A stretch of DNA of 64,000 nucleotides, from the NCBI GenBank assembly GCA_018826075.1, contig JAHKAJ010000024.1, positions 69,910-133,909 of the forward strand. Direction: 5' to 3'. Made by a program: the position numbers and the translations under genes. Shown here in pieces: positions 29,060 through 56,350 of this stretch; the first letter of the stretch is position 1, and each line of letters begins with the position of its first letter. The stretch comes from Candidatus Omnitrophota bacterium. Its GTDB lineage: Bacteria > Omnitrophota > Gorgyraeia > Duberdicusellales > 4484-171. The notes under the pieces were generated by a model. That model was not told the DNA's origin. It saw only the letters and a list, made by a program, of their open reading frames with translations, and did no database searches.

Positions 29060-29123
29060 ATATGGTATATTTTATACGGTTTCTACCAATTATTTAATAC
29101 GGTTTGAATATTACGCTGAAAAT

Positions 29124-35457: not shown

Positions 35458-36708
35458 TTAAGGGCTTTTTTCGGGATTAAACCGGGAAATCTGCCTGATT
35501 CGTTCTAAAACCGGTGGATGGCTATAATCCAGGAATACTTTTAAGTGGTGAGGGGTTAAATTAGAAAGATTGTTTACAGTCAGTTTTTTTAAAGCCAGGA
35601 TAAAAGCCTCAGGCTGATCATAGGTAGTTACTGAAAACCGGTCAGCTTCATATTCGTGCCGCCGGGAAAACAGGTTGCCGACTATGGAAAAAATAAAGCC
35701 TATCGGGGTATAAAGAAAACTGAAAAAAATAAGGCTGGCATAAACCGAAATTTGCTCCATCCTAAAAGCTTCAAACAGCCCCGGATTGTTAATAAAAAAA
35801 GAAAGCAGGTAAAACATCAGACCTTTAGTTAGGATCGAGTAGATAAAATTTTTCAGGATATGATTTTTTTTATAGTGGCCGACTTCATGAGCTAACACTG
35901 AGACTATTTCGCTGACACTGTGTTTTTGGATCAAAGTATCGTAAAGGGCGATCCGGCGGGACTTACCAAAGCCGCAAAAGAAAGCGTTAGCTTTGGTTGA
36001 ACGCCGTGATCCATCGATTTTATAAATCCCTTTTAAAGCAAACTTTTGCGAATCAGCATAACGGTTAACCGCATTTTTCAGTTCCCCGTCTTCCAAAGGC
36101 CTAAACTTGTTAAAAAGTGGCAAGATCAACAACGGATAGATAAAGGTGATCAGCCAGCTGAAAATAACCACTCCTAGCCAGCACCAGATCCAAGCTCCGG
36201 GCCCAAAACTGGCAAAAAGAACAATAATCGCATAAAAAGGAAGGCCGCCGATAATCACTAAAAGCAGCCAACTTTTAAGCTTATCGGCAATAAAAGTTTT
36301 AACCCGGGTTTGGTTAAACCCATATCTTTCTTCGATAACAAAAGTGCGGTACCAGGAAAAAGGTAACTCCAGAATTTGAGCGACAAAAATAATGATTCCG
36401 GCAAAAATCAATCCGGTTAACGCGAAATTTAAATTCAGGCTACGGGCGATCCGGTCAGCCAGGTTAAAACCTCCGATCAGAATAAAACCGACAACCGCTA
36501 AAGTAAAGACTGTTTCCTGAACCAGGTTGAATTTGGTATTTGTGGTAAGGTATCTTTGGGATTTACGGTAGCTTTCCGGTTGATAATAGCCTTTAAATTC
36601 TTCTGGCAGGTCAGGATCAAGCGCCCTAAGGTTAAGGATTTCAGCTAAAAACCTAAACAGGTAGTTAACGGCTAAAATAGTTAAAATCGCGATTAGATAT
36701 AGATTCAT
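35458..36708 (-). CDS. Ste24-type (CAAX prenyl protease-like) M48 family zinc metalloprotease, polytopic membrane protein
   Basis: About seven TM helices. HEVGHYKKNH (HExxH) and downstream E...NLSN motifs of M48A. Confidence 0.75.
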   Translation of the reverse strand: MNLYLIAILTILAVNYLFRFLAEILNLRALDPDLPEEFKGYYQPESYRKSQRYLTTNTKFNLVQETVFTLAVVGFILIGGFNLADRIARSLNLNFALTGLIFAGIIIFVAQILELPFSWYRTFVIEERYGFNQTRVKTFIADKLKSWLLLVIIGGLPFYAIIVLFASFGPGAWIWCWLGVVIFSWLITFIYPLLILPLFNKFRPLEDGELKNAVNRYADSQKFALKGIYKIDGSRRSTKANAFFCGFGKSRRIALYDTLIQKHSVSEIVSVLAHEVGHYKKNHILKNFIYSILTKGLMFYLLSFFINNPGLFEAFRMEQISVYASLIFFSFLYTPIGFIFSIVGNLFSRRHEYEADRFSVTTYDQPEAFILALKKLTVNNLSNLTPHHLKVFLDYSHPPVLERIRQISRFNPEKSP

Positions 36709-36766: not shown

Positions 36767-36849
36767 CGGTATGTCAACCGGCAACTCAGCCGCCCTAATA
36801 GCCCTTAAGGGTTTTAATCCGTAAGTTGGGGGAGCCTGTTTTTCGAAAG

Positions 36850-36945
36850 ATTTTGGACTTTTAACCCCCGGAACTATCTTAGGCCTGTTACAGCTTTGCG
36901 TCCCCGCCTTTCGACGGGTTTGCCCTTATCGGCAATTAAAGTATA
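36850..36945 (-). promoter_or_regulatory. c-di-GMP-I (GEMM) riboswitch aptamer
   Basis: Minus-strand RNA AAGGGCAAACC-CGUC-GAAA-GGCGG-GGACGCAAAGC-UGUAACAGG-CCUAAG... matches the GEMM-I consensus (AGGGCAAACC, P1b hairpin with GNRA tetraloop, GGACGCAAAGC, GGCCUAA) nearly base-for-base. Compare the Vibrio Vc2 aptamer. Confidence 0.7.
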
Positions 36946-38045: not shown

Positions 38046-39239
38046 TTAGTTTTCCGATATTAAATAGGGAGATTTGGCCTTTTGTATATTTAGAGCGATA
38101 GAAAGCTCTTGTTCTGATAAAAAGCCGGATTCCTTTAGGATCTCACCAAGAGCCACGCCTTTTTTCCAATGAGTCAAAAGGGCTTCGTTAAGTTGTTCGG
38201 CAGAGATTGATTGCCGTTCGACTAAAATCTGGCCCAAAGGTTTATAGAAGCTTTCGGATTTACGTTGGGAAATCTCCGGCTTAGCATCTTTGTTTATTTT
38301 AGTATCCCGGCGGTCAACCATAAACTTACTTCCCGGGATAGCTTTCAGATAACGTTTTATCTCAGCGACCTTCTCATTGAGCTGGATCATGTTTTCAATT
38401 CCAAAAGTATACTCTTTATTTACTACCGCCACCGAAACTGTCATTAAAGGCGTATTAGTAAGTTTACGCGACCGGTCCCGGCTTACCACAAAACCCTGCT
38501 GACGGTCAGTTTCAGAATAATGAAAAGGCATCAGCTGGTCAAAATTCTTAATGAAGTTACGGCAAATCTTTTGATATTTGTCCAAGCTGGAAATAAAAAC
38601 GAAATCATCGCCTCCAATATGGCCGACGAAATCGTCGGGATTGCCGAAATTTCTTACTGCCGCGATCAATAAATAGGCAGTCTGAAGTATCGCCCCGTCT
38701 CCTCTACGGTAACCATAAACATCATTAAAAGATTTAAAATTATCGATATCCAAGTAAGCAAAAGAAAAAGGATTGCCTTTTTTAAATTTTTCATTCAGAA
38801 CATCCTCAAATATCTTGCTTCCGGGAAGGCCGGTTAAAGAGCTGGCATAGATGCTATGTTGAGAACGCCTGACCGCCATCTCGATTCTTATCCGTAAATC
38901 TAATGGGTCCGGTGGTTTTATTAAATAGTCATCCACGCCTTGTTTTAAGTTTAACAACTGGGCTCTTAATTGGCGTTTATTGATTAGGGTTATAACCGGT
39001 ATAAAAGCAGTGGTGAAATTTTCTTTTAACTGCCGGCAGATAGCCAGTTGTTCCTTACGGGCAGATTGGATATCGATGACAATCACATCGGGTGAAATTT
39101 TTTTGATTTTTTCGATATCCTGAGGTTCAGAGAATTGGCGCAAAATAACTTCATAGCCCCAGCCGTCAAAGCAAAAACGCAAAACTTCCTTTAGCTGGTT
39201 GTCAGAAGAAATAATCAGGATTTTCTTAATGGTATCCAT
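38046..39239 (-). CDS. response-regulator receiver, GGDEF diguanylate cyclase and C-terminal MshEN-like c-di-GMP-binding domain
   Basis: REC domain (DIVIIDIQ, Asp pocket). GGDEF domain with GGDDF active-site motif and RGDG. The C-terminus carries two LG(Q/E)IL...(S/L)..(E/Q)L..AL repeats typical of MshEN/T2SSE_N. Confidence 0.75.
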   Translation of the reverse strand: MDTIKKILIISSDNQLKEVLRFCFDGWGYEVILRQFSEPQDIEKIKKISPDVIVIDIQSARKEQLAICRQLKENFTTAFIPVITLINKRQLRAQLLNLKQGVDDYLIKPPDPLDLRIRIEMAVRRSQHSIYASSLTGLPGSKIFEDVLNEKFKKGNPFSFAYLDIDNFKSFNDVYGYRRGDGAILQTAYLLIAAVRNFGNPDDFVGHIGGDDFVFISSLDKYQKICRNFIKNFDQLMPFHYSETDRQQGFVVSRDRSRKLTNTPLMTVSVAVVNKEYTFGIENMIQLNEKVAEIKRYLKAIPGSKFMVDRRDTKINKDAKPEISQRKSESFYKPLGQILVERQSISAEQLNEALLTHWKKGVALGEILKESGFLSEQELSIALNIQKAKSPYLISEN

Positions 39240-39352: not shown

Positions 39353-42300
39353 TTATTCTTTTTTTGGTTTCTTTTGTTCCTCGGATATTTTTTGGGCGAT
39401 TTCCTTAGGCACCGGAATATACTTTTTAAAGTGCATTGAACAACTGGCCCGGCCGCTGGAAAGTGACCGTAGATTAGTGACATGGCCGAACATCTCAGCC
39501 AAAGGAGCTTCAGCCAGGATCTGTTTCTGGCCGCCTTTAGTCTCCATGCCCAAAATTTTACCTCTTCGGGAACAGATATAACCGACAATGCTGCTGGTGT
39601 ATTCTTCGGGAGTGAGGATCTCTAAATCCATGCAAGGTTCAATAAGGGTTGGCTCGCACTTTAAAAAAGCTTCACGAAAACAGCCCAAAGCCGCAAGCTT
39701 AAAGGCAATCTCTGAAGAATCGACCTCATGATAGGAACCATCGATAAGGTTTATTTTAATATCCACTACTGGATAACCGGCATAAGCGCCTTTCTTCATG
39801 GCCTCAATAAGGCCCTTTTGAACTGCCGGAATAAAATTTTTAGGTATAGCCCCACCTTTAATGCTGTCAGTAAATTCAAATCCGGCTGCCGGCTGGTTAG
39901 GAGAAAGCTCAAAAACTACGTGGCCGTACTGACCTCGTCCTCCGCTTTGTTTAACATGCTTATATTCCTGAGTTGCTGAGCCGGAAATTGTCTCTTTATA
40001 GGCTACTTTGGGCTGACCCACCGTAGCCGAAACCTTAAATTCTTCTTTGAGACGCTCAACAATTATTTCCAAATGCAGTTCGCCCATTCCCGAAAGAATT
40101 GTCTCAAGAGTCTCTTCATCAGTGTGAGCGGTAAAGGTCGGGTCTTCTTCGGTAAGTTTAGCGATTCCTTTAGCCAACCGGTCCTGATCAGTGCGGCTTT
40201 CCGGTTTGATGCTTATCGAAACTACTGGATCGGAAAAAACTATTGATTCAAGCAGTATGGGGTTTTCTGAATTGCAAAGAGTATCTCCAGTTAAAGTAAA
40301 GTTCAACCCGACTATTGCTCCGATATCACCGGCAAACATAACGTCAACGTTTTCCCTCTGGTTGGCATGCATGCGGACAATCCTACCCACGCGTTCTTTT
40401 TTATTTTTAGTCGCGTTTAGAATATAACTACCGGCCTTTAAAAACCCCGAATAAACCCGTGCGTAAACCAACTTGCCTACGTGTTGATCAGCCTGAACCT
40501 TAAAAGCTAAGGCCGAAAAAGTTTCCTCATCCTGAGGCTTACGTTCTAATTTTTTTTCCGGGTCATCAGGGTCATTGCCGATCACTGCCGGTACTTGGGC
40601 CGGCGACGGCAAATAAACAGTAATCGCATCAAGCAAATCCTGGATACCTTTGTTTTTTAAAGCTGCTCCGCATAAAACCGGTATGATCTTATTTTCAACT
40701 GTCGCCTGATGCAGAGCTTTCTTAATCTCCTCGTTAGTAATTGTATCTTCTGACTGAAGATATTTTTCCATCAGTTGGTTGTCAAAAGAAGCAACTTTTT
40801 CTATTAAGCTGTGGCGGTATTGTTTAGCCAACTCCTTGTCGTTTTCGGGTATTTCTTCCAGCTTGATATCTTTGCCGAAGGAATTCTCATCATAAAATTT
40901 AGCCTTCATCTCAATAAGGTCGATCACACCCTTAAACTCAGTTTCTTTGCCGACCGGTATTTGTAAAGCTACGGCATTAGCCCCGAGAGTAGTGACTATT
41001 TCCTGAAAAACTTTAAAAAAATCAGCACCCAGTCTGTCCATTTTGTTAATAAAGGCTATTTTGGGGACTTTATATTTAATCGATTGGCGCCAGACAGTCT
41101 CGGTTTGTGATTCAACTCCGCCTACCGCACAAAATACTGCGACTGCTCCGTCAAGAACCCTCAAAGATCGTTCTACCTCAGCGGTAAAATCAACGTGGCC
41201 AGGAGTATCAATGATCGTGATCTGGCAATCAGCCCAATTACAGGTAGTTGCTGCTGAAGTTATGGTAATGCCTCTTTCCTGTTCTTGTTTCATCCAATCC
41301 ATCTGGGCAGCTCCGTCATGGACTTCGCCGATTTTATGAGAACGGCCGGTATAAAAAAGAATCCTTTCAGTGAGCGTAGTCTTTCCAGCGTCAATATGGG
41401 CCATAATGCCGATATTGCGGATTTTATCCAAAGTTATTTTTCTTTCCGGAGGCGGTTCTTCTTTTTTCTTAACCATCTCCGTCTTGACTTCCGGTTCGGG
41501 TTTAGCTATCTCTTCCTCTGCCGGTAGCTGGATCGGGGCCGGATTTTCAGCTAATGGTTCTTCAGCTGGAACTTCCAAAGGCGGACTTTCTTCAGGCAAC
41601 TCGGGAATTGCCGGTTTTTCTTCCGGGTTTTGCGGTTCAGGCGTTAAAGTAACGGTACGCTCAAGACCCCGCAACTGGTTAAGAATACGGATCCTTTCCT
41701 CATCAATTTTTTTTGTTTCTTCCTCTTTGAGCGTCAACTCCTTTTTTTTGATTTCCAGTTCGTCTCGCAAATTTTCACATTGATTTTCCAACAAAGAATA
41801 ATCTTCTTTGGAAATCCAGCCGCTTTGACGCTCTTGTTCCTTAAGTTTGGTCAAATCGGCCAGATATTGGTTTTTTTCTTTAGCTAGATCCTGCATCTTT
41901 TGGCCCTGCTCTTTGGCTTTAGTCTCTAATAAGATTATTTTCTCATTTAGCTGGCTGAGGTTTTCCTCTTTTATCCCGATCACTTCTTCGGTTTGCTTAA
42001 GGTCCTTCTTAAGCTGGACATTATTGGAAAATTCTTTTTCCAACTGTTTTTCGGTTTCAATGAATTTAAACTTTAAAGTTTCATAAGGGCCTTTGCCTTT
42101 TTTCAAAATATCCTGTTGGCTATTCAGCCATTTTTTATTTCGTTGCAGTTCATCAGTCAACTCTTTGACCTTTTGGCTGCTGGCCTGATATTTTTGCTGT
42201 AAAGCCAAGTTATCAGTCTTAGCCTTTTCCAAAGAAATGTTTTCATTTCTAACTTCTAACATTTCCCGTTTTAAAATTTTAACATTTTCATGAAGGGTGA

Positions 42301-42439
42301 GGATTTTTTGAGCCTCGGGGCTGGACTTGGAAAGGAATCCCCGGCTAAGCAATTTTTTCGGGTCTAAAGAATCGTCGGTATTTACCGCGTAAAGAACCAG
42401 GGCTACCGCTACTCCGATAAAAAGAAAAATTACCACCAT
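39353..42439 (-). CDS. elongation factor G homolog fused in-frame to an N-terminal TM anchor, ~250-aa coiled coil and Pro/Glu-rich linker
   Basis: Residues ~340-1028 are a full EF-G ([14 protein letters not shown], domain [11 protein letters not shown]). Residues 1-330 are a hydrophobic N-terminus, Lys/Glu/Gln-rich heptad sequence and a PEPE linker, with no stop codon in the frame. An internal Met ~20 aa before the G-domain could be an alternative start. Confidence 0.7.
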
Positions 42440-44801: not shown

Positions 44802-45035
44802 CTACATTAAAGCAGCGGCTTCTTGAATTACAGGTAGAATCGCTTCGACTTCATCCTTGGACATCCTTCCTAAGCGGGTAAAGCGAAAATCACCGTTAGA
44901 GTCCCGGTTTTCCCGGGTAACCTGCATTTTTTTAGCGCCTTTGTTGTAGGAAAATACCCCTACGGTAATCTTAGTAGTGTCAGATTCCCAGGATTTAGAA
45001 AAAATTTTTTCATCCAAATTGCTGTCATACGGCAT
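44802..45035 (-). CDS. hypothetical small protein
   Basis: 77-aa ORF. Confidence 0.3.
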   Translation of the reverse strand: MPYDSNLDEKIFSKSWESDTTKITVGVFSYNKGAKKMQVTRENRDSNGDFRFTRLGRMSKDEVEAILPVIQEAAALM

Positions 45036-45123: not shown

Positions 45124-45837
45124 TTAAGCTGAATGAGTAATATGGCGTTCAACGAACAATACGATTTTTTCTTGAGTTTTTGCATCGAGATCGTAAAACT
45201 CAAGGCCCATTCCCGGAAAATCATCAGGCTGGATCTCCTGGTCAGTGATCCAGACCACTTTAGTGTCTACCTCAATGACCCCTGGTTCCGGCAAAAGGTG
45301 CACCCGGCTGGTAAGCGAATCACCTATCGAAAAAAGTTTTTGAGCCGCCACAAAGACTCCATCAGCGCTTAAATTGATGATTTTACCGCTGTAGAATTCG
45401 GCTTGGTCAGAAAATTTTTGCCGGTATTCGATGACTGTATTGAGGGGTATGCGCGTGAAGCGGCGCCGAAAGGGTTTTTCTGAAGGCGATCCAGAGTGGG
45501 TTTCTTCCTTGATTTTTTTAAAAGCGTGGTCTTCAGTAACGTGGTATTCAAACACCCGGTCTAGGCCGACGATGGAAAATAATTTCATTACGTGAGACGG
45601 GACATTGCAGAGTTTTATTATTCCGTTATGGTTAAGTACATTTTTATAGATCACCGCTATTAACGAAATACCTACATAATCAATCAGATTGACCGATTCA
45701 AAATTGCAAATGATCTGTTTAGATTTATTAGTCAAGACCCAGCCTACAGTCTCAACAAAGTTGGATGCATTTATATCGATATTGCCTTCCAGGTCTAAAA
45801 TTGCTACGTCGTCTTTCTCGCGAATATTAATATTCAT
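45124..45837 (-). CDS. STAS (anti-sigma-factor antagonist-like) domain fused to a C-terminal PilZ domain
   Basis: N-terminal region (DVAILDLEGNIDINAS...NFESVNLIDYVGISLIAVI...LCNVPSHVMKLFSIVGLDRVF) matches the SpoIIAA/STAS pattern. The C-terminus has RRRFTRIP (RxxxR) and a D.S.DGVFV-like PilZ signature. Confidence 0.6.
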   Translation of the reverse strand: MNINIREKDDVAILDLEGNIDINASNFVETVGWVLTNKSKQIICNFESVNLIDYVGISLIAVIYKNVLNHNGIIKLCNVPSHVMKLFSIVGLDRVFEYHVTEDHAFKKIKEETHSGSPSEKPFRRRFTRIPLNTVIEYRQKFSDQAEFYSGKIINLSADGVFVAAQKLFSIGDSLTSRVHLLPEPGVIEVDTKVVWITDQEIQPDDFPGMGLEFYDLDAKTQEKIVLFVERHITHSA

Positions 45838-45844
45838 TTTGAGT

Positions 45845-46579
45845 TTATATTAATAAGCTTACTAAAGAAATTAGAATACAATAGTAACCAAAAAAACTGA
45901 ATTTTTGATTTTTTAAAGTTTTGTTGACGATAAATAAAGCTAAAAGCCCCGACAGGAAAGCAGCGAAAAAACTGCCTAACAAATTAATCGGGACTATTTT
46001 TAATTCAGTCAATTCCCGGGCTTTAAGGAAAAAAGCGCCTAAAATAGCCGGGATAGCCATTAAAAAAGAAAAGGTGAAAGCTTCCTGAGGGGCGAAGCCT
46101 TTTCTAAGTAAGCTGGAAATAGTTATCCCTGAGCGAGATATTCCCGGGAGCACAGATAAGCCTTGCAGCAAACCCAAAGATAAAGCATCTTTAAACTTAA
46201 TCTCATGATGGTGTTTCTTGCCAGAAGTTTTCTTTAAACTCAACAGAATCGCAGCATTGATTAAGAGAAAAAAAGATATGAAAAAACGGCTTTCAAAAAA
46301 ATTGACTAAAAAACGGTCGATAACCAAACCAATTATAGCAGTAGTAGCAGTAATGATAGTCAGATTAAAAAAGGTTTTTTTTCGAAAAAGGAGCTTAACT
46401 ATTTGACGGCGTAAAAATATAACTATTGCTAGTAAAGTCGCCAGATGTAACAAGACAAAAAAAGGAATTAAATTATCTGAAAGGTGGGTGAGACGTTTGA
46501 TAATAAATAAATGGCCGGAACTGCTTACCGGCAGGAATTCAGTCAATCCTTGGGCAATACCCAAAGCTATTGTTTTCAC
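45845..46579 (-). CDS. uppP: undecaprenyl-diphosphatase
   Basis: The GI.QGLTEFLPVSSSGH and GISRSG motifs of BacA/UppP. Confidence 0.85.
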   Translation of the reverse strand: MKTIALGIAQGLTEFLPVSSSGHLFIIKRLTHLSDNLIPFFVLLHLATLLAIVIFLRRQIVKLLFRKKTFFNLTIITATTAIIGLVIDRFLVNFFESRFFISFFLLINAAILLSLKKTSGKKHHHEIKFKDALSLGLLQGLSVLPGISRSGITISSLLRKGFAPQEAFTFSFLMAIPAILGAFFLKARELTELKIVPINLLGSFFAAFLSGLLALFIVNKTLKNQKFSFFGYYCILISLVSLLI

Positions 46580-47229
46580 GCACTTCGTCCTTTCACAAAA
46601 AGATAAACAAAAATTAAAAAAATAACAATGCCGACGACTAAGATGACATATTCAAATATATCCGATTTTTCTTTTTCCAACGGTAGCTTATCTAAAGAGT
46701 ATGATTCCTTTCTTTCACTTGTTTCATCAGGCAAAGGTTCAGAGAGTTTCGGCTCGAGATTCTCCGGTTCAGGCTCGTTTAAGCTTTCCACCACCGCCGG
46801 TTCAGTATTTTCGACGACTTTATCTTCGGCCGGTAAAGGCGGAACTGAACTTCTCTCATTTTTATCTGCAGGGATATCCGGCAGAATTTCATTATCTTGC
46901 TGGTTTGCCGGCTGACTGGCGGCTACTGGTTCTGGTTCGTTGCTGGCTGCTTCTTGAGGAGTTTCGGTTACAATTGGTGCAGCTTCCTGGGAGGATTCAG
47001 GTAGTTCGATATCTATCCCTTCCCCGGGGACATATTCTATGTCGGCATTTTGTGATGTTTGCTCAGGCTTACTTTCCTCAGGAATTGCTAATTTATCCAT
47101 CAGCTCACCTAAGGTGCTACGGCAGTCATGACAAACACAAAGATGTTCTTCAACCAACTTGATCTCTTCGTCGGTCGCAGTATGGTTAAAGTATTTCGGT
47201 ATTACCCCTTTGATCTCTTGACAATCCAT
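46576..47229 (-). CDS. putative zinc-finger (zf-HC2) anti-sigma factor with an acidic Pro/Glu-rich periplasmic region and C-terminal TM helix
   Basis: HLCVCHDCRS zf-HC2 motif near the N-terminus and a single C-terminal TM segment. AGGGAGGG ribosome-binding site. Confidence 0.5.
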   Translation of the reverse strand: MDCQEIKGVIPKYFNHTATDEEIKLVEEHLCVCHDCRSTLGELMDKLAIPEESKPEQTSQNADIEYVPGEGIDIELPESSQEAAPIVTETPQEAASNEPEPVAASQPANQQDNEILPDIPADKNERSSVPPLPAEDKVVENTEPAVVESLNEPEPENLEPKLSEPLPDETSERKESYSLDKLPLEKEKSDIFEYVILVVGIVIFLIFVYLFVKGRSA

Positions 47230-47299: not shown

Positions 47300-49294
47300 T
47301 TAAAATTCGTAGTTAACTTTAACGATGAAATTTCTGGTCGGATTAGGGTATAAATTATAAGCTCCGGTAGTAGCATTCCTCACTCCGTATTCGCTGTATT
47401 CACGGGAAGCTAAATTGTTAACGCCGGCCAAAAACTTCCAATTATCTCGGGAGTAAGATAAAGATAGATTGATAGTTTGATAGGCTCCAATCCGGTCATA
47501 CCTATTAGCCTGATCATTAATATAAAATTTTTCATCGATGCAGTTAGTTGACAGGTCGATTTTTAAACTTTCCAGCGGCAGCCAACGCATGCCAATCAGA
47601 ACTTTATTGCGCGGTACCATCGGAATGGTATTTCCGGCATAGGAATCGCCCCGGAAGGTCGCCTTAAGATAAGTATAGTTACCGTAAAGCTCAAGCCAGC
47701 TAAAAAATTTAGCATCAAAGGAAAATTCGATCCCGTCACGCCGGGTCTTGTTGTAATTTTCGTTGGCGCCGAAAGCAAAAGGGCCTCCGGTGGGATTATA
47801 ATAAAGTTCGTTTTCCAAATCCATCCGGAATAACGACAAACCGGCCTGGAAATTATCATTGAACTTTTGCTCGGTTCCGATTTCGAAATTATCGGAAACT
47901 TGGGGTTTCAAATCCAGATTAAGCGAACCCCAGGTAAAATATTCGTCGGTTGCCGGGGTACGGAAGCTTCGGCTGATGTTTAAAAATACTTTTGATTGTT
48001 CGGTATGGCTATAAACCAAACCGCTGTTGTAAGCTTTCTGGTAAAAGTCGCTTTTACGGTCAATGTCGGGATAGGTCCCGGAATTATCATGATAATCAAA
48101 ATCGTAGCTTACCTTTTCTCTGCGGTAGCCTCCGATCAACTTTAACTTTTCAAAAATTGAAAATTCATTCTGAAAGTAAGCGGCGTAGGTTGTTTTATTA
48201 ATATCGTTGAAGTCCTGAAGCTGATCGGAAAGATTGTAAGTGTCGGCGCTGTAGTCGTATTGATATATATCGATACCGGCGATCAAGCTATTGTCGTGGC
48301 CGAAAAACGGCTGTTTAAAAGCATGTTTAGAGGTTAAGGAAAAGGTTTCAATATAGCTTTTAAGAATCGGATTCCAGCCGGCATTGGCTCCCAAAAAGTA
48401 ACTGTATGCATCGCGGTTACGAAATGACAGATCAACTGAGCTTTCTCCCCATTGGCCAAAATCTTTATCTAATCCCAAAGTGAAATAATAGTCTTTTTCT
48501 TTAACATAATCGTCCCCGTATTTAGAGTGGGTTCGGTCAAAAACTTCTAAATCGGTTCCGCTTAAATTACCGGGCAGGCCAAAGTCAGCTTTGTGAAAAC
48601 CGCTGTCAAAACGTAAATTCCAATCCGGACCGAAAGCATATTCAAGCTTTGATCCGAAATCATAACTTTTAAGATAGCTGTTATTGCGATAACCGTGGGT
48701 ATGAATACGACTTCCGGTCAGCTGGTAAGAAAGTTTTTCCAAAGAACCGCTCAAGGAGAGCTCTTCAGAATCAAAGTTATAGCTGCCATACTGGCTTTTG
48801 TAGCTGAGTTTGGGTTTACCCCGGCCTTTTTTGGTAATAATATTTACTACGCCGGATACGGCATTGTCGCCGTACAAAACCGCTCCCGACCCGCCACGGA
48901 TGACTTCAATGCGTTCAACCTGGCTTAAAGGTATTTGCGACCAATCGACGCCGCTTAAGTCGACTTCATTGATTCTTCTTGAATCAATAAGAACTACCGA
49001 GTTCATTGCTGCCTGTTCGCCAAATCCCCTAATGTCAATAGAAGCTTTAGCTGAATTACCATACCAATCTCTGACTACAATACCGGGGACAACCCTTAAG
49101 CTATCCAAAACTGTTACCGGATTACCGTTTTCGATATCCTCTTGGCCTATAACCGTCAATGAACCACAAGTTTGGCCGGCTGCCTGGGGGTAACGATAAG
49201 GGGTCACTACTATTTGTTCTAAATTAATCTGTTGAGCCATTAAATAAAAAGGAACCGCTAACAACCATGAAAGAACCGTTAATGTTTTTTTCAT
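47300..49294 (-). CDS. TonB-dependent outer-membrane receptor (BtuB-like, cobalamin-riboswitch controlled)
   Basis: Signal peptide, plug domain, beta-barrel with C-terminal aromatic residue (…VNYEF). Start set at the Met after the leader of the ORF-track ORF. The cobalamin riboswitch lies immediately upstream. Confidence 0.8.
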   Translation of the reverse strand: MKKTLTVLSWLLAVPFYLMAQQINLEQIVVTPYRYPQAAGQTCGSLTVIGQEDIENGNPVTVLDSLRVVPGIVVRDWYGNSAKASIDIRGFGEQAAMNSVVLIDSRRINEVDLSGVDWSQIPLSQVERIEVIRGGSGAVLYGDNAVSGVVNIITKKGRGKPKLSYKSQYGSYNFDSEELSLSGSLEKLSYQLTGSRIHTHGYRNNSYLKSYDFGSKLEYAFGPDWNLRFDSGFHKADFGLPGNLSGTDLEVFDRTHSKYGDDYVKEKDYYFTLGLDKDFGQWGESSVDLSFRNRDAYSYFLGANAGWNPILKSYIETFSLTSKHAFKQPFFGHDNSLIAGIDIYQYDYSADTYNLSDQLQDFNDINKTTYAAYFQNEFSIFEKLKLIGGYRREKVSYDFDYHDNSGTYPDIDRKSDFYQKAYNSGLVYSHTEQSKVFLNISRSFRTPATDEYFTWGSLNLDLKPQVSDNFEIGTEQKFNDNFQAGLSLFRMDLENELYYNPTGGPFAFGANENYNKTRRDGIEFSFDAKFFSWLELYGNYTYLKATFRGDSYAGNTIPMVPRNKVLIGMRWLPLESLKIDLSTNCIDEKFYINDQANRYDRIGAYQTINLSLSYSRDNWKFLAGVNNLASREYSEYGVRNATTGAYNLYPNPTRNFIVKVNYEF

Positions 49295-49321
49295 ATTTTT
49301 CTCCCGGATAAAAATACTCAA

Positions 49322-49356
49322 AAATAAAAAAACCCTATACCGCATTTGGTATAGGG
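49322..49356 (-). terminator. intrinsic terminator (expression platform of the cobalamin riboswitch)
   Basis: Minus strand CCCUAUACC-AAAUGC-GGUAUAGGG followed by UUUUUUUAUUUUU, about 30 nt before the receptor start. Confidence 0.55.
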
Positions 49357-49439
49357 TGCACCCTGATTTACTTAGCCCTAAAAAATAAATCTTTCAAGTC
49401 ATTCCGCGTAACTTAAAAAAATTCTCTAACCTTTGATCA

Positions 49440-49585
49440 GGTATTCTGACTTCCCCGCTCTCTTAGCGGCCTTCCCATCCGGCTGGACAGTGGCTAAAAG
49501 GCTAAAAGAGTTCCCCGAATTTCGGGGCAGGGTTACAGCTGCGGGACAGCTACCGATTCGCACGGTATTCCCTAAACCAAAGAAT
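49440..49585 (-). promoter_or_regulatory. cobalamin (AdoCbl) riboswitch
   Basis: Minus-strand RNA contains UUAGGGAAUACCGUGCGAAUCGGUAGCUGUCCCGCAGCUGUAA (compare consensus AGGGAA..GGUG.AAAUCC..GCUG.CCCGCAAC.GUAA). It also has the B12 box AGCCACUG and a downstream GGGAAGGC. Confidence 0.7.
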
Positions 49586-49589
49586 AGTC

Positions 49590-50096
49590 TTAATTTGACA
49601 AAAGAGCAAGTTTAGCCTTGCGGCTTGGGACCTTTTTGGATACAAATTCATAGGTACCCAAAAGTACCAGCATATAAAATACATTTGAAACTAATGACGT
49701 CCTGAAAAAAGGTATGGCTAAAGTGTAACATTGGATTAAACCGTTTATTGTCCGGGGATACCAGCCACCCAGCCAAACACCGAGATTAGTGACAATAAAA
49801 AAGATGACCGAAGAAATCGCAGCATAAGAAAGATTGGTCACCAGGCTTTGATTTCGTTTTAATCGTTTACCCAACAAAGTTATCAGAAAAACACTGCCCC
49901 AGGTAAATAAAACTACTCCGTGTAACCCGATTATCAAATCGGAGATGACATAGAGTACTATCGGCAACCAAAGCGAATATTTTTTATTCAGGTAAGCACC
50001 CGAAAACAAAGCGATGGCTATGATTGGGCTAAAATTAGCCAAATGCGGGGTTAACCGGGAAGCCAGGCCAAGAATAAACAACGCGATTATTAACAT
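49590..50096 (-). CDS. hypothetical polytopic membrane protein (168 aa)
   Basis: About five TM helices. No confident family assignment. Confidence 0.45.
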   Translation of the reverse strand: MLIIALFILGLASRLTPHLANFSPIIAIALFSGAYLNKKYSLWLPIVLYVISDLIIGLHGVVLFTWGSVFLITLLGKRLKRNQSLVTNLSYAAISSVIFFIVTNLGVWLGGWYPRTINGLIQCYTLAIPFFRTSLVSNVFYMLVLLGTYEFVSKKVPSRKAKLALLSN

Positions 50097-50239: not shown

Positions 50240-50755
50240 TTAATATTTGATCAGCGAATATACGGGGTATCCGGCCAACTTCTCTTTTCCTTTCAAAAAA
50301 GTCAGCTCAATAAGAAAAGCGATGGCGGTAATCTCGCCGTTAAGTTTTTTTACCAGTTCAATCATAGCACTGGCGGTTCCACCAATCGCCAGAAGATCAT
50401 CTAAAATCAGAATTTTTGCTCCGGCCGGGAAAGCATCCTGATGGATTTCCAATGAATCTTCTCCGTATTCCAAAGCATAAGTGTGACGGTAAGTTTTGGC
50501 CGGAAGCTTCCCGGGTTTTCGTACCGGAACAAATCCACAACCTAATTTGTAGGCTAAGGCCGCTCCAAAAATAAAACCCCGTGATTCGGCAGCCACAACA
50601 TAATCAATATCTTTATCAGCGATCAACCCGGCCAGTTGATCAATCGCCGAAGGAAAAGCTTTCTTATCATTTAAAATCGTAGTTATATCCTTAAATAAAA
50701 TTCCTTTCTTTGGAAAATCTGGAATATCCCGGATAAGTTTTTTAAGTTCACTCAT
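50240..50755 (-). CDS. apt: adenine phosphoribosyltransferase
   Basis: The IRDIPDFPKKGILFKDIT and PRPP-binding motif ILILDDLLAIGGTA. Confidence 0.85.
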   Translation of the reverse strand: MSELKKLIRDIPDFPKKGILFKDITTILNDKKAFPSAIDQLAGLIADKDIDYVVAAESRGFIFGAALAYKLGCGFVPVRKPGKLPAKTYRHTYALEYGEDSLEIHQDAFPAGAKILILDDLLAIGGTASAMIELVKKLNGEITAIAFLIELTFLKGKEKLAGYPVYSLIKY

Positions 50756-51570
50756 TCAATATCCCTCTTGCGTTCTTCCTGAGTGTATTTTCGTAATTTT
50801 TTCAAAGCTTCCTGTTCGATCTGCCTTACCCTTTCCCGAGAAACGTTTAGGCTGTCGGCGACTTCGGCTAAAGTATGCGGCCGGCCGTCAGTTATGCCAA
50901 AACGTAAATCAAGCACTGATTTTTCCCGTTCGCCTATAGCGCTAAGCAGTTGCTTGACTCTTTCCCGGGTAAATACCTTTTCCACGTTAGTCTCAGTATC
51001 GCTTTGTTCACTGCCTTCGATAAAATCACCGAGTTGCGACTCGCCTTCACTTCCCACCGGCGCTTCCAAAGAAGATTTTTTTTGAGACCAAAGCTCGATC
51101 TCAGCTATTTTTTCAATCGGCAATTTCAAACGTTTAGCTATTTCTTCACGCTGCGGATCACGGCTGTTTTTCTGACGAAGCTGTTCGGATATTTTTCGGT
51201 ATTTTGACATCAATTCGCTCATGTACACCGGAATGCGGATAGTCTTTCCCTGATCGATCAAAGCCCGAGTTATGGCCTGACGTATCCACCAAGCTGCATA
51301 AGTTGAAAATCGGTAGCCACGGCGAGTATCGAATTTGTCAATTGCCCGCATCAGACCGATGTTACCCTCGGCGATCAAATCCATCAAGCTTAAGTTTAGG
51401 TGGCTATAATGTTTGGCAATGTTGACTACCAGCTTAAGGTTGCAATTGATGATCTTGCGGCGGGCTTGACGGTCTCCCTGCTTTGCCTTCGTGATCAAAT
51501 CGATCTCTTCGGTTTTTTTAAGCAGCGGGAGACTTTTAATTCTTTCTAAATAGGCTTTGATTGCTTCCAT
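50752..51570 (-). CDS. RNA polymerase sigma factor, sigma-70 family (regions 2-4, non-ECF)
   Basis: Region 2 (DLIAEGNIGLMRAIDKFD...FSTYAAWWIRQAI) and region 4 helix-turn-helix (LAEVADSLNVSRERVRQIE). Confidence 0.8.
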   Translation of the reverse strand: MEAIKAYLERIKSLPLLKKTEEIDLITKAKQGDRQARRKIINCNLKLVVNIAKHYSHLNLSLMDLIAEGNIGLMRAIDKFDTRRGYRFSTYAAWWIRQAITRALIDQGKTIRIPVYMSELMSKYRKISEQLRQKNSRDPQREEIAKRLKLPIEKIAEIELWSQKKSSLEAPVGSEGESQLGDFIEGSEQSDTETNVEKVFTRERVKQLLSAIGEREKSVLDLRFGITDGRPHTLAEVADSLNVSRERVRQIEQEALKKLRKYTQEERKRDIE

Positions 51571-56005: not shown

Positions 56006-56350
56006 CTAAGATATTTTTTTGATGATTTCGGTTAAATGTTTCCGGAGTTGAGGTAATGAGGTTTCGATAATGCTCCAAACTATATCCAAATTGACCCCAA
56101 AATAGTGATGGATCAGTTTATCACGGACTTTGGCAAAATCATTCCAAGGAATTTGAGGGTATTTTTGGGAAAAGTCGCTAGAAATATTTTTGGAGGCTTC
56201 GCCGATTATTTCGAAATTACGTACTACTGCATCCTGAATTATTCGGTTTTTCATGAAGGCAGCATAGTTAATATCTTGACAATAGCTGATTATCCGCTTT
56301 GCTGCTTCAAGAATATCGGCTAGATACTCAGAATTACTCCTTTTAGACAT
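56006..56350 (-). CDS. hepT: HepT-like (DUF86) toxin of a HepT/MntA toxin-antitoxin pair
   Basis: DUF86-type composition with a conserved R..H-like C-terminal region. Overlaps the upstream nucleotidyltransferase gene. Confidence 0.65.
   Translation of the reverse strand: MSKRSNSEYLADILEAAKRIISYCQDINYAAFMKNRIIQDAVVRNFEIIGEASKNISSDFSQKYPQIPWNDFAKVRDKLIHHYFGVNLDIVWSIIETSLPQLRKHLTEIIKKIS

Follow-up and report, generated by a model that had tools for sequence, protein, structure and literature searches.

A family of STAS-PilZ fusion proteins in Omnitrophota, encoded beside a predicted tail-anchored zf-HC2 protein: a possible c-di-GMP-gated partner switch

The window analysed here, a stretch of 64 kb from a Candidatus Omnitrophota MAG, encodes a protein in which a STAS domain is fused to a PilZ domain. 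This STAS-PilZ fusion defines a conserved Omnitrophota family, whose members carry an invariant tyrosine at the position of the phospho-acceptor serine of SpoIIAA and RsbV and whose genes have, as their most persistent neighbour, a gene for a zf-HC2 protein (ZAS) that is predicted to be tail-anchored. As the mechanism, we tentatively favour a phosphorylation-independent, c-di-GMP-gated partner switch acting on the ZAS protein, a reading to which we give a little less than an even chance.

The STAS-PilZ protein and its family

The gene and its parts are as follows.

45124..45837, minus strand: STAS-PilZ gene, 237 aa plus stop (ORF, Pfam, AF2, Foldseek)
45496..45837, minus strand: STAS domain, residues 1-114, beta-alpha fold ending in helix 102-114 (Pfam, SpoIIAA profile match, AF2)
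45664..45681, minus strand: loop D53-Y54-V-G56-I-S58, with the Y54 codon at 45676-45678 (HMM alignments)
45469..45495, minus strand: interdomain linker, residues 115-123, SGSPSEKPF (predicted disorder, poor conservation)
45451..45465, minus strand: RxxxR c-di-GMP-binding motif R125-R-F-T-R129, immediately C-terminal to the linker (sequence)
45127..45468, minus strand: PilZ domain, residues 124-237, beta-barrel plus C-terminal helix 219-235 (Pfam, TIGR02266, Foldseek)
45358..45375, minus strand: (D/N)xSxxG c-di-GMP-binding motif N155-L-S157-A-D-G160 (sequence)

A preliminary description of this locus had proposed the fusion of the two domains and suggested a domain search as the check. Both domains were found by Pfam profiles with scores above the cut-offs: STAS (PF01740) matches residues 2-103 at 49.1 bits (cut-off 22.6, E=5e-13; profile positions 1-104 of 106), and PilZ (PF07238) matches residues 124-230 at 56.7 bits (cut-off 22.5, E=3e-15; profile positions 2-101 of 102). 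The AlphaFold2 (AF2) model, with a mean pLDDT of 84, supports both folds, and the fusion is confirmed as proposed; its pTM of 0.49 makes the interdomain geometry unreliable. In the linker region (residues 115-126) the pLDDT falls below 50, and the mean conservation of the linker is 0.47.

The model is confident across residues 1-110 of the STAS domain (pLDDT 82-95). Searched with Foldseek, the N-terminal half matches SpoIIAA, RsbV and TM1442 with target-normalised TM scores of 0.83-0.88 and an rmsd of 1.3-1.7 A, among them 1vc1_A (TM 0.88, rmsd 1.3 A) and 1th8_B (TM 0.83, rmsd 1.7 A); the SpoIIAA chain 1th8_B is also matched by sequence profile at E=1e-13. The score for TIGR00377 (anti-sigma factor antagonist), 52.1 bits, narrowly misses the cut-off of 53.45, and the SpoIIAA equivalog TIGR02886 is not reached (44.8 bits, cut-off 114.75). 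The PilZ half scores 49.7 bits against TIGR02266 of NCBIfam, and in the AF2 model it takes the fold expected of PilZ, a six-stranded beta-barrel followed by a helix, with strands between residues 130 and 215 and the helix at 219-235, mostly with pLDDT of 84-92. Its Foldseek matches are PilZ domains, namely those of Alg44 (4rt1, TM 0.75), MotI (5vx6), MapZ (5xly), YcgR (5y6f) and BcsA. With regard to the two PilZ motifs read earlier from this protein, RRRFTR is present and contains RxxxR, whereas the second motif is NLSADG, the N variant, and not DxSxxG. By fold and intact motifs, the PilZ half appears to be of the canonical c-di-GMP-binding type, and would be expected to bind the ligand.

The fusion is far beyond chance, because a deposited Omnitrophica MAG protein (NCBI) is 100% identical to it and 178 clusters match it at E<=0.001; in 120 of the 120 matches listed, both domains are present over full or nearly full length. 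Conservation was scored over 64 non-identical family members of 43-78% identity. Two segments are the best conserved of the protein: residues 124-131 with the RxxxR motif, which reach the highest value of the whole protein (0.89), and residues 53-70, the beta3-alpha2 loop with helix alpha2, which form the best-conserved part of the STAS domain (0.86). R125 and R129 are invariant (64/64), and so are N/D155, S157 and G160 (64/64). The beta3-alpha2 segment is the canonical partner-binding face of STAS domains, and its loop carries the phospho-acceptor serine, Ser58 in SpoIIAA and Ser56 in RsbV. HMM alignments to 1th8, 1auz and 1sbo place Y54 on this position, that is, on the first S of MD-S-SG. 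A phosphorylatable Ser or Thr, whose conservation had been raised as a point to verify, is thus absent: the residue is Tyr in 64 of the 64 members, and is retained down to 26% identity. The loss of the phospho-acceptor serine from the STAS domain is permanent.

We also considered whether the STAS-PilZ architecture is limited to one family, and rejected this, as an exhaustive representative search returned other, rare STAS-PilZ groups. Some of these outside proteins (P0205, P0208 and P0245) retain the canonical serine within DSSG or DSxG. No ZAS, RsbW or RsbU genes were found around the outside groups in the contexts examined.

The ZAS neighbour and the gene context

The genes around STAS-PilZ considered here are the following.

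46576..47229, minus strand: ZAS (zf-HC2) protein, 217 aa, predicted to be tail-anchored (Pfam zf-HC2)
47092..47229, minus strand: N-terminal zinc-finger domain of ZAS, residues 1-46, C3-x25-H29-x3-C33-x2-C36 (alignment, Pfam)
46594..46650, minus strand: C-terminal transmembrane helix of ZAS, residues 194-212, then the 5-residue tail KGRSA (hydropathy)
45845..46579, minus strand: uppP/bacA, undecaprenyl-diphosphate phosphatase (Pfam BacA, 195 bits)
44802..45035, minus strand: p77, conserved 77-aa downstream gene, 88 bp after STAS-PilZ and co-oriented
50752..51570, minus strand: sigma-70-family gene, 272 aa, with regions 1.2, 2, 3 and 4, RpoD/RpoS-like and without region 1.1 (Pfam, NCBIfam)

As previously described, the zf-HC2 gene lies two genes before STAS-PilZ, with uppP between them and all three on the same strand. 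The ZAS stop codon overlaps the uppP start by 4 bp, and uppP is separated from STAS-PilZ by 7 bp in the window, where a 4-bp overlap is frequent in relatives. The zf-HC2 profile (PF13490, cut-off 22.2) matches the whole ZAS protein at 25.7 bits and its N-domain alone at 29.5 bits, and was matched in 30 of 30 ZAS homologues (best E=4.9e-10), all of which carry the full C-x25-H-x3-C-x2-C motif. The invariant columns in the 30 aligned sequences are C3, Y13, H16, E27, H29, L30, C31, C33, C36 and R37; H16 is conserved in all homologues except one further homologue, where it is Cys. Conservation ends at about residue 46, roughly half of a classical anti-sigma domain, which has four helices and about 80-90 aa, and PDB profile matches of the N-domain to ChrR, RslA and RsiW are weak and not significant (E=0.2-0.8), so that Pfam membership is the only ground for treating ZAS as a putative anti-sigma factor. 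An acidic, Pro-rich linker (residues 47-190; 26% D+E, 15% P) joins the N-domain to the transmembrane helix, and its variation accounts for the range of homologue lengths from 90 to 455 aa. In a hydropathy scan, the distance between the best transmembrane window and the C-terminus is 1-11 residues in every homologue, with 2 as the most frequent value. Because the chain ends this close behind its only transmembrane helix, the ZAS protein is predicted to be tail-anchored, with no space for an extracytoplasmic sensor domain.

The pairing of the two genes was followed through a survey of 52 genomes, among which 49 species genomes were testable for ZAS upstream of STAS-PilZ; the complete chromosome CP070797.1 (L042) was not scored, its sequence upstream of STAS-PilZ being masked with N. 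Other complete or near-complete Omnitrophota genomes with the family are CP070684.1, GCA_018829265.1 and GCA_021735655.1. A ZAS homologue lies upstream of STAS-PilZ on the same strand in 47 of the 49. Within these 47 species loci, uppP stands between the two genes in 35 and is absent in 12, where ZAS directly adjoins STAS-PilZ with a gap of -4 to 79 bp. The surroundings of the 12 directly adjacent pairs are otherwise unrelated, and comprise his/pur/pyrG genes, PPDK-sigma-apt or a cobalamin cluster; the flanking genes have been reshuffled many times while the pair was kept, often with overlapping stop and start codons. ZAS, not uppP, is the most persistent neighbour of STAS-PilZ across Omnitrophota. 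The impression gained from five loci, that uppP is a key partner, was downgraded in view of the 12 lineages with ZAS adjacent and no uppP, and uppP is an insertion of one sub-lineage and not a fixed part of the module.

A reciprocal scan seeded with ZAS found STAS-PilZ at 31 of 40 testable loci. The other nine lack an intact STAS-PilZ gene, and three of the nine carry a frameshifted, internally deleted remnant; at least five lineages have ZAS without intact STAS-PilZ. Conversely, two divergent lineages (L051 and L055) have STAS-PilZ without ZAS. These nine loci and two lineages reject an obligatory pair, and the pairing is strong, not obligatory. The distances of the ZAS N-domain co-vary with those of STAS and not with those of PilZ (partial r of 0.41 and -0.05, partial Mantel p about 0.001), and the same holds with UppP as control (0.30 and -0.01). 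This STAS-ZAS mirror-tree signal is indirect: the distances of UppP are themselves tracked better by STAS than by PilZ (0.67 vs 0.45), so the signal may in part be due simply to STAS being a better phylogenetic marker than PilZ.

Downstream of STAS-PilZ, p77 has 93 homologues, the named ones all from Omnitrophota. It is found only in the sub-clade with uppP and a long linker, and so is possibly a member of the operon; several lineages keep ZAS-uppP-p77 after the loss of STAS-PilZ. No match to p77 was obtained in Pfam or PDB sequence searches. Its AF2 model (pLDDT 91) has a beta-beta-beta-beta-alpha topology, for which the best fold match, suggestive only, is the PUR repeat of Borrelia Pur-alpha (3nm7, E=0.02, TM 0.51).

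The Pfam scan, which covered all 69 window ORFs of at least 80 aa, identified the gene at 50752-51570 as the only sigma factor among them. This agrees with the earlier statement that no ECF sigma is adjacent and that this gene is the nearest sigma; no ECF sigma was found among the 69 ORFs or in about 100 related loci. The gene order PPDK-sigma-apt-(tRNA)-ZAS-STAS-PilZ recurs in many relatives, and in a subset of loci an RpoD/RpoS-like sigma gene lies 1.2-6 kb upstream, with apt and a tRNA gene in between. The sigma factor at 50752-51570 is a candidate target of the module. In a promoter and terminator scan of 43.7-51.7 kb, promoter-like sites were fewer than the shuffled expectation, so the scan gives no operon boundaries. 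The genes of the putative transcription units stand in the order riboswitch-btuB-ZAS-uppP-STAS-PilZ-p77.

The organism has c-di-GMP as a live messenger. The window contains a c-di-GMP-I riboswitch, and its genes include those for a REC-GGDEF protein, for an HD-GYP protein whose motifs are intact and, besides STAS-PilZ, for two more proteins of the PilZ type. A search for partner-switching enzymes, which the preliminary description had recommended, covered the 64 kb of the window and flanks of 7-10 kb in relatives; the window ORFs and the flanks annotated in five relatives yielded neither an RsbW-type kinase (HATPase_c_2) nor an RsbU/SpoIIE PP2C phosphatase. BY-kinase and low-molecular-weight phosphotyrosine phosphatase domains were likewise not found in the window ORFs. 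Of the coupling between c-di-GMP and partner switching suggested earlier, the domains, the binding motifs and the link to ZAS are therefore retained, and the classical phospho-serine, kinase and phosphatase are not.

A possible c-di-GMP-gated switch and its alternatives

In the mechanism that we tentatively favour, the STAS-PilZ protein would be a soluble two-domain c-di-GMP receptor, with PilZ as the sensor and STAS as the protein-binding output, and with the RxxxR arm placed in the flexible interdomain linker. The second messenger would replace the kinase and phosphatase input of classical partner switching; since the phospho-acceptor serine has given way to an invariant tyrosine, the input once provided by phosphorylation may now come from c-di-GMP. 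Binding of c-di-GMP at the junction of linker and PilZ would cause PilZ to re-pack against STAS, for which the ligand-induced domain closure known for YcgR-type PilZ proteins serves as a model, and the re-packing would expose or mask the conserved beta3-alpha2 face of STAS. The likeliest partner of this face would be the cytoplasmic zinc-finger domain of the co-encoded ZAS, which has no external sensor domain and so would depend on a signal from the cytoplasm. If ZAS works like known ZAS anti-sigma factors, its hold on a sigma factor encoded elsewhere might change when STAS binds, and the presumably co-transcribed uppP of this lineage hints at an envelope-related output. The intact PilZ motifs, the conserved STAS face, the lost serine, the pairing with ZAS and the STAS-ZAS co-variation speak for this scheme, with HsbA and RsiG, described below, as precedents. 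Against it count the short ZAS N-domain, the lack of an adjacent ECF sigma gene at any locus, the apt and tRNA genes that stand between the module and the RpoD/RpoS-like sigma gene, and the lineages in which one of the two genes occurs without the other. In this scheme we infer c-di-GMP binding, the contact between STAS and ZAS, and any effect on a sigma factor. We know of no STAS protein that binds a ZAS-type anti-sigma factor, nor, to our knowledge, is there an experimentally characterised precedent for c-di-GMP replacing phosphorylation as the input of a STAS protein. A more detailed version, in which two genes suffice for a phosphorylation-free switch, the PilZ-gated STAS domain with Tyr in place of phospho-Ser binding the zinc-finger head of ZAS in a c-di-GMP-dependent manner and thereby releasing or capturing at the membrane a sigma factor, which may be the neighbouring one of RpoD/RpoS-like type and not an ECF sigma, is rather doubtful as a whole.

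The alternative that survives best, although we consider it unlikely, is that the fusion is a c-di-GMP adaptor with a different partner, or has a nucleotide- or anion-binding STAS domain, and that its adjacency to ZAS reflects co-expression or inherited gene order and not contact. ZAS and STAS-PilZ each occur without the other, no ZAS gene lies beside the genes of distant STAS-PilZ proteins that fall outside the family, and STAS domains in general have diverse partners (reviewed in PMC8256260); in addition, the loci all come from one phylum, so the conserved gene order may be partly inherited. However, the pair has survived the repeated reshuffling of its flanks, its stop and start codons often overlapping, STAS and ZAS show a specific co-variation, and conservation falls on the surface with which STAS domains canonically bind proteins.

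The position of uppP raises another possibility, which is quite unlikely: a c-di-GMP-dependent, post-translational regulator of lipid-carrier recycling, in which STAS-PilZ, perhaps recruited to the membrane by ZAS, binds UppP or a polysaccharide or peptidoglycan machine. PilZ domains often regulate exopolysaccharide synthases and gate BcsA and Alg44, both of which are among the Foldseek matches, and MlaB is a STAS protein in the service of a membrane transporter. In 35 of the 47 species loci uppP separates ZAS from STAS-PilZ, commonly with 4-bp overlaps at both of its ends, which suggest translational coupling and a fixed stoichiometry, and ZAS, with its flexible spacer 40 to 400 aa in length, has the look of a membrane tether. 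Yet in 12 species-level lineages ZAS directly adjoins STAS-PilZ with no uppP at the locus, and several lineages that lost STAS-PilZ retain ZAS-uppP-p77. Moreover, UppP, as a polytopic membrane enzyme, exposes little surface to the cytoplasm, and we know of no regulator of it.

It is very unlikely that the protein is a classical antagonist of an unlinked kinase anti-sigma factor of the RsbW/SpoIIAB type, sequestered when c-di-GMP is bound or absent, with the ZAS protein making no physical contact. Such a role would suit the STAS domain, whose nearest relatives by sequence and fold are SpoIIAA and RsbV, known from crystals of their complexes with SpoIIAB and RsbW, and which scores barely under the TIGR00377 cut-off (52.1 against 53.45 bits); moreover, the search for such a kinase covered only 64 kb of the genome and 7-10 kb flanks in relatives. 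But the very residue phosphorylated by these kinases is an invariant Tyr, neither the window nor the flanks annotated in five relatives gave a HATPase_c_2 or PP2C gene, and a classical antagonist leaves unexplained both the linkage of ZAS and STAS-PilZ in unrelated contexts and the tracking of STAS by ZAS divergence. Finally, we regard as highly improbable that Tyr54 itself is phosphorylated by a bacterial tyrosine kinase/phosphatase pair, with Tyr phosphorylation and c-di-GMP being integrated. In its favour, an invariant Tyr stands exactly at the phospho-acceptor position, conserved beyond the need of a permissive substitution. But a role as a contact residue explains an invariant aromatic residue equally well, no BY-kinase or low-molecular-weight phosphotyrosine phosphatase domain was found in the window, and we know of no precedent for Tyr phosphorylation of a STAS domain.

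Relation to known systems and significance

The closest sequence relatives of the N-terminal half, SpoIIAA and RsbV of Bacillus and relatives, share its fold and the same conserved beta3-alpha2 docking face. They differ from the present protein in that here Tyr replaces Ser, no kinase or phosphatase gene is nearby, a PilZ domain is fused and the neighbour is of the ZAS type and not of the kinase type. HsbA (PA3347) of Pseudomonas aeruginosa, in the HptB-HsbR-HsbA-HsbD system, is a STAS protein with two binding partners, FlgM, which is an anti-sigma factor of the non-kinase kind, and HsbD, which is a diguanylate cyclase (PMC5085249). It is alike in being a STAS protein wired into c-di-GMP signalling with a non-kinase anti-sigma partner; however, HsbA is a single-domain protein that switches by phosphorylation of Ser56 and acts upstream of c-di-GMP synthesis, whereas STAS-PilZ would sense c-di-GMP directly and would not be capable of Ser phosphorylation at that site.

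On the PilZ side, the two-domain receptors YcgR, MotI (DgrA) and PlzD and the single-domain adaptor MapZ resemble the present protein in their canonical PilZ domain, whose RxxxR arm belongs to a flexible segment before the barrel and, in the two-domain receptors, after an N-terminal domain; the ligand-induced repacking expected here would likewise control a protein-protein contact. In the present protein, the N-terminal domain is STAS and not PilZN/YcgR_N, and its likely target would be a transcription regulator and not the flagellar motor or CheR. In Streptomyces, c-di-GMP arms the anti-sigma factor RsiG against sigma(WhiG) (PMC7005675). The likeness, that the level of c-di-GMP decides sigma sequestration, is conceptual only: RsiG binds c-di-GMP itself via a coiled-coil motif at the interface of sigma and anti-sigma, whereas a separate, PilZ-bearing antagonist is proposed here, and RsiG and STAS-PilZ have no sequence or fold relationship.

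The ZAS neighbour shares the C...H-x3-C-x2-C motif and the zf-HC2 match with RsrA, RsiW, ChrR and RslA, and, like RsiW and RslA, is predicted to be membrane-anchored with a cytoplasmic zinc domain. It differs from these anti-sigma factors in having about 46 conserved residues where their domain has about 85, an extra invariant Cys31, an almost invariant His16, a tail anchor that leaves no extracytoplasmic domain and a spacer that is acidic and differs greatly in length, and in never lying next to an ECF sigma gene. The predicted and uncharacterised PilZ-PrsW fusion LIC_20173 of Leptospira, PrsW being the site-1 protease of RsiW (PMC12943098), is another predicted c-di-GMP route to a ZAS-type anti-sigma factor. 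Its mode of action would be proteolysis and not partner binding, and its architecture is unrelated.

No published description of a STAS-PilZ protein was found in the full texts searched, a scope that leaves aside the PilZ architecture survey in J Bacteriol 2020 (doi 10.1128/JB.00664-19). The results suggest a so far undescribed way for c-di-GMP to control transcription. If the proposed switch is true, STAS and ZAS would be paired for the first time, and a sigma factor would for the first time be under PilZ-based control; PilZ proteins would gain a new class of output, the control of an anti-sigma-like protein, and STAS partner switching a new class of input, with a second messenger instead of Ser phosphorylation. 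With two small proteins and one ligand, the module is a compact study system for which heterologous expression is feasible, and the family, with its invariant Tyr at the phospho-site, amounts to a natural experiment on the requirements of the STAS beta3-alpha2 loop for partner binding. Should the mechanism be wrong, a conserved and uncharacterised family of putative c-di-GMP effectors and its gene module are still documented. Omnitrophota form a widespread phylum of uncultured and often ultra-small bacteria, of whose regulatory biology almost nothing is known, and the module, if it works as proposed, would offer a way into the gene regulation of this phylum.

Domain architecture and family of STAS-PilZ

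The STAS-PilZ gene (45124-45837, minus strand) is an ORF with an ATG start that encodes a protein of 237 aa. In Pfam searches, STAS (PF01740) was assigned to residues 2-103 with 49.1 bits against a gathering score of 22.6, and PilZ (PF07238) to residues 124-230 with 56.7 bits against 22.5. An AlphaFold2 model, computed from a family alignment of 26 sequences, has a mean pLDDT of 84 and a disordered linker (residues 115-126). In Foldseek comparisons with the PDB, the N-terminal half resembled SpoIIAA, RsbV and TM1442 (target-normalised TM 0.83-0.88; rmsd 1.3-1.7 Å), and the C-terminal half resembled the PilZ domains of Alg44, MotI/DgrA, MapZ and YcgR. The fusion proposed in the preliminary description is thus borne out by both profiles and folds. 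By every test that could be applied, the protein belongs to the STAS and PilZ domain families, and it is very probably a c-di-GMP receptor with a STAS output domain.

Residue conservation was evaluated in 64 non-identical full-length members, taken from genome and metagenome loci and sharing 43-78% identity with the window protein. R125 and R129 of the RxxxR motif, as well as N/D155, S157 and G160 of the second motif, (D/N)xSxxG, are present in all 64; strict selection acts on the c-di-GMP-binding signature. The class of the second motif had been recognised correctly, but the window protein carries NLSADG, the N variant, rather than the DxSxxG originally given. The STAS domain carries the almost invariant motif D53-Y54-x-G56-x-S58. 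In profile alignments with SpoIIAA (1th8/1tid and 1auz, representing two species) and TM1442 (1sbo), Y54 falls on the first Ser of "MD-S-SG", which is the phospho-acceptor. Tyr occupies this position in 64/64 members and is kept in members down to 26% identity; therefore, the phosphorylatable Ser, the conservation of which had been left to be checked, has been permanently replaced. Within the whole protein, conservation peaks in the RxxxR segment (0.89) and in residues 53-70 (mean 0.86), and it is lowest in the interdomain linker (0.47). Residues 53-70 make up the beta3-alpha2 loop plus helix alpha2; in established structures, SpoIIAA uses this face on SpoIIAB. The STAS domain has conserved its classical interaction face and lost its phospho-acceptor.

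A Candidatus Omnitrophica MAG encodes a protein that is 100% identical to the window protein, and 178 clusters match the latter at E<=0.001. Among the 120 matches listed, all contain STAS and PilZ in 234-254 aa, and the named organisms are all Omnitrophica/Omnitrophota; automatic database names are "anti-sigma factor antagonist", "PilZ domain-containing protein" and "stage II sporulation protein AA". GTDB species, each represented by one genome, were scanned with family-specific peptide patterns, which make the scan uninformative on other phyla; 52 STAS-PilZ loci were found, nearly all labelled Omnitrophota. The exceptions, some TPA assemblies labelled "uncultured Planctomycetia" and one labelled "Methanosarcinales", are presumed to be labelling or binning artefacts. 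An exhaustive search of 1.84 billion representatives returned 31 at E<1e-30, followed by a thin tail of other 230-245 aa proteins with one match across both domains (66-95 bits); therefore, the architecture also occurs outside the family, where it is rare. These distant groups have Ser or Gly at the phospho-site, with the canonical D-S-S/x-G kept in P0205, P0208 and P0245, and their neighbourhoods contain no genes for RsbW, RsbU or ZAS, the zf-HC2 anti-sigma-like protein described below.

The module can be duplicated, since one species (L031) has two tandem STAS-PilZ genes (217-927 and 1018-1767) and one MAG (L034 and L037) has two separate ZAS/STAS-PilZ pairs on different contigs. On the complete Omnitrophota chromosome CP070797.1 (L042), a stand-alone PilZ gene of 125 aa (7676-8053) begins 10 bp past the stop codon of STAS-PilZ; upstream of STAS-PilZ, the sequence is N-masked, and the locus was left out of the ZAS count.

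Gene pairing of STAS-PilZ with ZAS

The genes around STAS-PilZ include the following features:
50752-51570, sigma-70-family protein with regions 1.2, 2, 3 and 4
49419-49595, minus strand, cobalamin riboswitch (RF00174; 79.4 bits, Rfam)
47300-49345, minus strand, TonB-dependent receptor, directly downstream of the cobalamin riboswitch
46576-47229, minus strand, ZAS
45845-46579, BacA/UppP (uppP)
44802-45035, minus strand, p77, a gene of 77 aa

Pfam upheld the zf-HC2, intervening UppP and sigma-70-family assignments made earlier. The receptor is probably a BtuB-like B12 importer, because the riboswitch lies directly upstream; in relatives, it comes after CobU, CobS, DBI_PRT, FecCD and an ABC ATPase (cobalamin salvage/transport). 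The receptor gene is followed by a 70-bp gap, ZAS, a 4-bp overlap, uppP, a 7-bp gap and STAS-PilZ, and then by an 88-bp gap, p77, p202 and p107. ZAS-uppP-STAS-PilZ might receive partial read-through from the receptor gene 70 bp upstream.

A ZAS homologue lies upstream of STAS-PilZ on the same strand in 47 of 49 testable loci, three of the 52 species-level loci having been left out because of a contig end or N-masking. In 35 of the 47, uppP is located in between, often with a 4-bp overlap with STAS-PilZ. ZAS is directly adjacent in the other 12 (gap -4 to 79 bp), where the flanking genes are wholly unlike those of the window, for example hisH/hisF/purF/pyrG with a downstream macro-domain-like gene, or PPDK-sigma70-apt. 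Survival of a pair through repeated reshuffling of its flanks, often with stop/start overlap, typically marks a functional two-gene module. L051 and L055, which are the most divergent members (43-45% identity), lack ZAS and keep the Tyr.

Because these loci were all picked via STAS-PilZ, a reciprocal metagenome scan was seeded with the ZAS motif EEHLC[VI]CxxC. It yielded 50 loci with a genuine ZAS gene; two further, weak seed matches (L113 and L114) proved not to be ZAS proteins. After exclusion of 10 loci as too short, STAS-PilZ was found downstream of ZAS in 31 of 40 (17 directly, 14 with uppP between), and nine had enough room yet no intact STAS-PilZ. Three of them (L069, L070 and L072) carry a decayed remnant, with residues 8-73 and 172-235 in different frames, so gene loss is ongoing in one lineage. 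The L069 pseudogene (~5465-5847) has ~100 codons deleted and is flanked by intact uppP and p77. In L075, L076/L077, L097 and L100/L094, STAS-PilZ is gone entirely and ZAS is kept, with or without uppP and p77. The pairing is strong and not obligatory. No ECF sigma gene is adjacent to ZAS/STAS-PilZ in any locus. The order PPDK, sigma-70 (~273 aa), apt, (tRNA), ZAS, STAS-PilZ recurs in many lineages; this proximity could be mere inherited synteny, because apt and the tRNA gene intervene.

ZAS in the window has 217 aa. All homologues share an N-terminal domain of ~46 residues with C3, Y13, E27, H29, L30, C31, C33, C36 and R37 as invariant positions; H16 is also conserved except in one homologue, which has Cys. 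In the window (47092-47229, minus strand), this domain contains the full ligand set C-x25-H-x3-C-x2-C plus an extra Cys (C31) and His (H16), giving four Cys and two His within 36 residues (HLCxCxxC); the extra residues could form a second metal site, an Fe-S cluster or a redox switch. An acidic, Pro-rich spacer follows (26% D+E and 15% P in the window), and its length variation results in proteins of 90 to 455 aa. The homologues end with a single TM helix and a tail of 1-11 residues, most often two. Therefore, ZAS is tail-anchored, with a cytoplasmic zinc domain and no extracytoplasmic sensor, and its input, if it is a regulator, must be cytoplasmic. The zf-HC2 profile matches 30/30 ZAS sequences (best E=4.9e-10, Pfam). 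The conserved domain is about half as long as a classical anti-sigma domain, and profile matches to ChrR, RslA and RsiW in the PDB are non-significant (E 0.2-0.8); therefore, the anti-sigma function is assumed from family membership.

Pairwise distances from 59 non-redundant ZAS/STAS-PilZ pairs were compared by the mirror-tree approach. Distances of the ZAS N-domain correlated with those of STAS at r=0.51 and of PilZ at r=0.32. The ZAS-STAS partial correlation was 0.41 with PilZ controlled (partial Mantel p ~0.001), and ZAS-PilZ was -0.05 with STAS controlled. When UppP served as the external control (n=38), the values were 0.30 and -0.01, respectively. UppP, too, is tracked more closely by STAS (0.67) than by PilZ (0.45), so part of the ZAS-STAS signal may reflect marker quality. 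Such co-variation is the pattern predicted from STAS-ZAS contact, as seen by an indirect method.

c-di-GMP components and other genes in the window

c-di-GMP signalling is active in the source organism. The window contains:
36777-36934, minus strand, c-di-GMP-I riboswitch (RF01051; 61.7 bits vs gathering score 35)
24539-25579, HD_5 protein with intact HD and GYP motifs
38046-39239, minus strand, REC-GGDEF protein with the variant site GGDDF
29043-29453 and 29612-29962, plus strand, two stand-alone PilZ proteins with complete RxxxR and (D/N)xSxxG

These components make the physiological setting plausible for a PilZ receptor. The riboswitch lies upstream of an M48/CAAX-type peptidase gene (35458-36708), and together they constitute a second c-di-GMP output in the neighbourhood. 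In the REC-GGDEF protein, GGDDF replaces GG(D/E)EF and the GGDEF profile match is partial (positions 5-90 of 161). Its C-terminal 60 residues (PLGQILVERQSISAEQLNEALL...ALGEILKESGFLSEQELSIALNIQ) resemble, by eye, the tandem MshEN/T2SSE_N c-di-GMP-binding motif, with no Pfam match to T2SSE_N at E<=0.001; the protein might be a receptor instead of, or besides, a cyclase. The two stand-alone PilZ genes are side by side, with aroB on one flank and a DUF4416/radical-SAM pair on the other, and this arrangement recurs near the STAS-PilZ locus in the relatives L013 and L024.

The p77 protein belongs to no Pfam family; it has 93 homologues at 55-100% identity and is conserved within Omnitrophota. Its AF2 model (pLDDT 91) has a beta-beta-beta-beta-alpha topology with Borrelia Pur-alpha (3nm7) as the best PDB match (E=0.02, TM 0.51), so p77 may bind single-stranded nucleic acid in the manner of PUR/Whirly proteins. 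Only the sub-clade with uppP and long-linker ZAS has p77 after STAS-PilZ, and p77 is still at the locus in lineages that have lost STAS-PilZ. An EF-G homologue (39353-42439, minus strand, 1028 aa), with EF-G domains beginning at residue 339, has an N-terminal extension that combines a hydrophobic segment with a long coiled-coil-like stretch and a Pro/Glu-rich spacer. Relatives (871-1076 aa) have conserved this extension, and the protein looks like an unusual, membrane-tethered translation GTPase. A HepT-like RNase/MNT nucleotidyltransferase toxin-antitoxin pair (56006-56645, minus strand) lies in a low-GC stretch (~36% GC at 56-58 kb vs ~41% elsewhere).

Possible mechanism and alternatives

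In the two-domain PilZ receptors YcgR, PlzD and MotI, the N-terminal domain changes its orientation when ligand binds at the junction between the domains. In STAS-PilZ, the RxxxR arm is on the flexible linker immediately past the last STAS helix. By analogy, c-di-GMP binding would make PilZ repack against STAS and thereby switch the availability of the STAS face. Gene context and co-variation point to the ZAS zinc domain as the partner of this face, an assignment that we hold at slightly less than even confidence. As with ZAS anti-sigma factors, the contact would change how far a sigma factor is sequestered; that the system controls a sigma factor is somewhat doubtful, and the mechanism as a whole is put forward tentatively. 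Partial precedents are HsbA, a STAS protein whose partners include FlgM, a non-kinase anti-sigma, and a diguanylate cyclase (PMC5085249), the anti-sigma RsiG, armed by c-di-GMP (PMC7005675), and a Leptospira PilZ-PrsW fusion, a predicted link from c-di-GMP to the ZAS anti-sigma RsiW (PMC12943098). No c-di-GMP-binding STAS protein appears in a review of STAS-only proteins (PMC8256260).

The pairing in 31 of 40 loci fits a ZAS with its own function and STAS-PilZ as a dispensable input module, and it is likewise compatible with the weaker reading that the two are neighbours only. That STAS-PilZ is an adaptor with another partner, the adjacency to ZAS being physically meaningless, appears unlikely. 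The insertion of uppP between the two genes, and the gene overlaps at such loci, would suit a post-translational regulator of UppP or envelope synthesis with ZAS as a membrane tether; however, 12 lineages lack uppP and some retain ZAS-uppP after STAS-PilZ loss, which makes this role distinctly improbable.

It is very improbable that STAS-PilZ is a classical antagonist of an unlinked RsbW-type kinase, given the Tyr at the phospho-site and the lack of such kinase genes nearby. The partner-switching kinase or phosphatase (RsbW/RsbU-like) envisaged in the preliminary description was found neither in the window nor in the annotated flanks of five relatives: HATPase_c, HATPase_c_2, SpoIIE/PP2C and ECF-type sigma are absent from the 69 window ORFs of at least 80 aa (Pfam), and partner-switching enzymes and ECF sigma from 8-10 kb flanks of the relatives (precomputed Pfam annotation). 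In contrast to the phosphorylation-driven antagonists SpoIIAA and RsbV, STAS-PilZ has no phospho-Ser, no cognate kinase and phosphatase found locally, and a score narrowly below the cut-off of TIGR00377, the NCBIfam model of the anti-sigma-antagonist superfamily (52.1 vs 53.45 bits). It is therefore outside that class, and it may work like an antagonist all the same. A phospho-tyrosine switch at Tyr54 is extremely improbable.

PilZ fusions are numerous, and one more would hardly astonish a specialist. In the literature covered, to which one key PilZ survey did not belong, we found no paper on this architecture, the missing phospho-site or the ZAS partner. The novelty is a new combination of two well-known signalling domains together with a new conserved gene partner. 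To our knowledge, essentially no regulatory biology of Omnitrophota has been described. The system is small, its STAS domain has invariably lost the phospho-site and its ZAS partner is tail-anchored; together, these features provide a concrete, testable hypothesis in this phylum.
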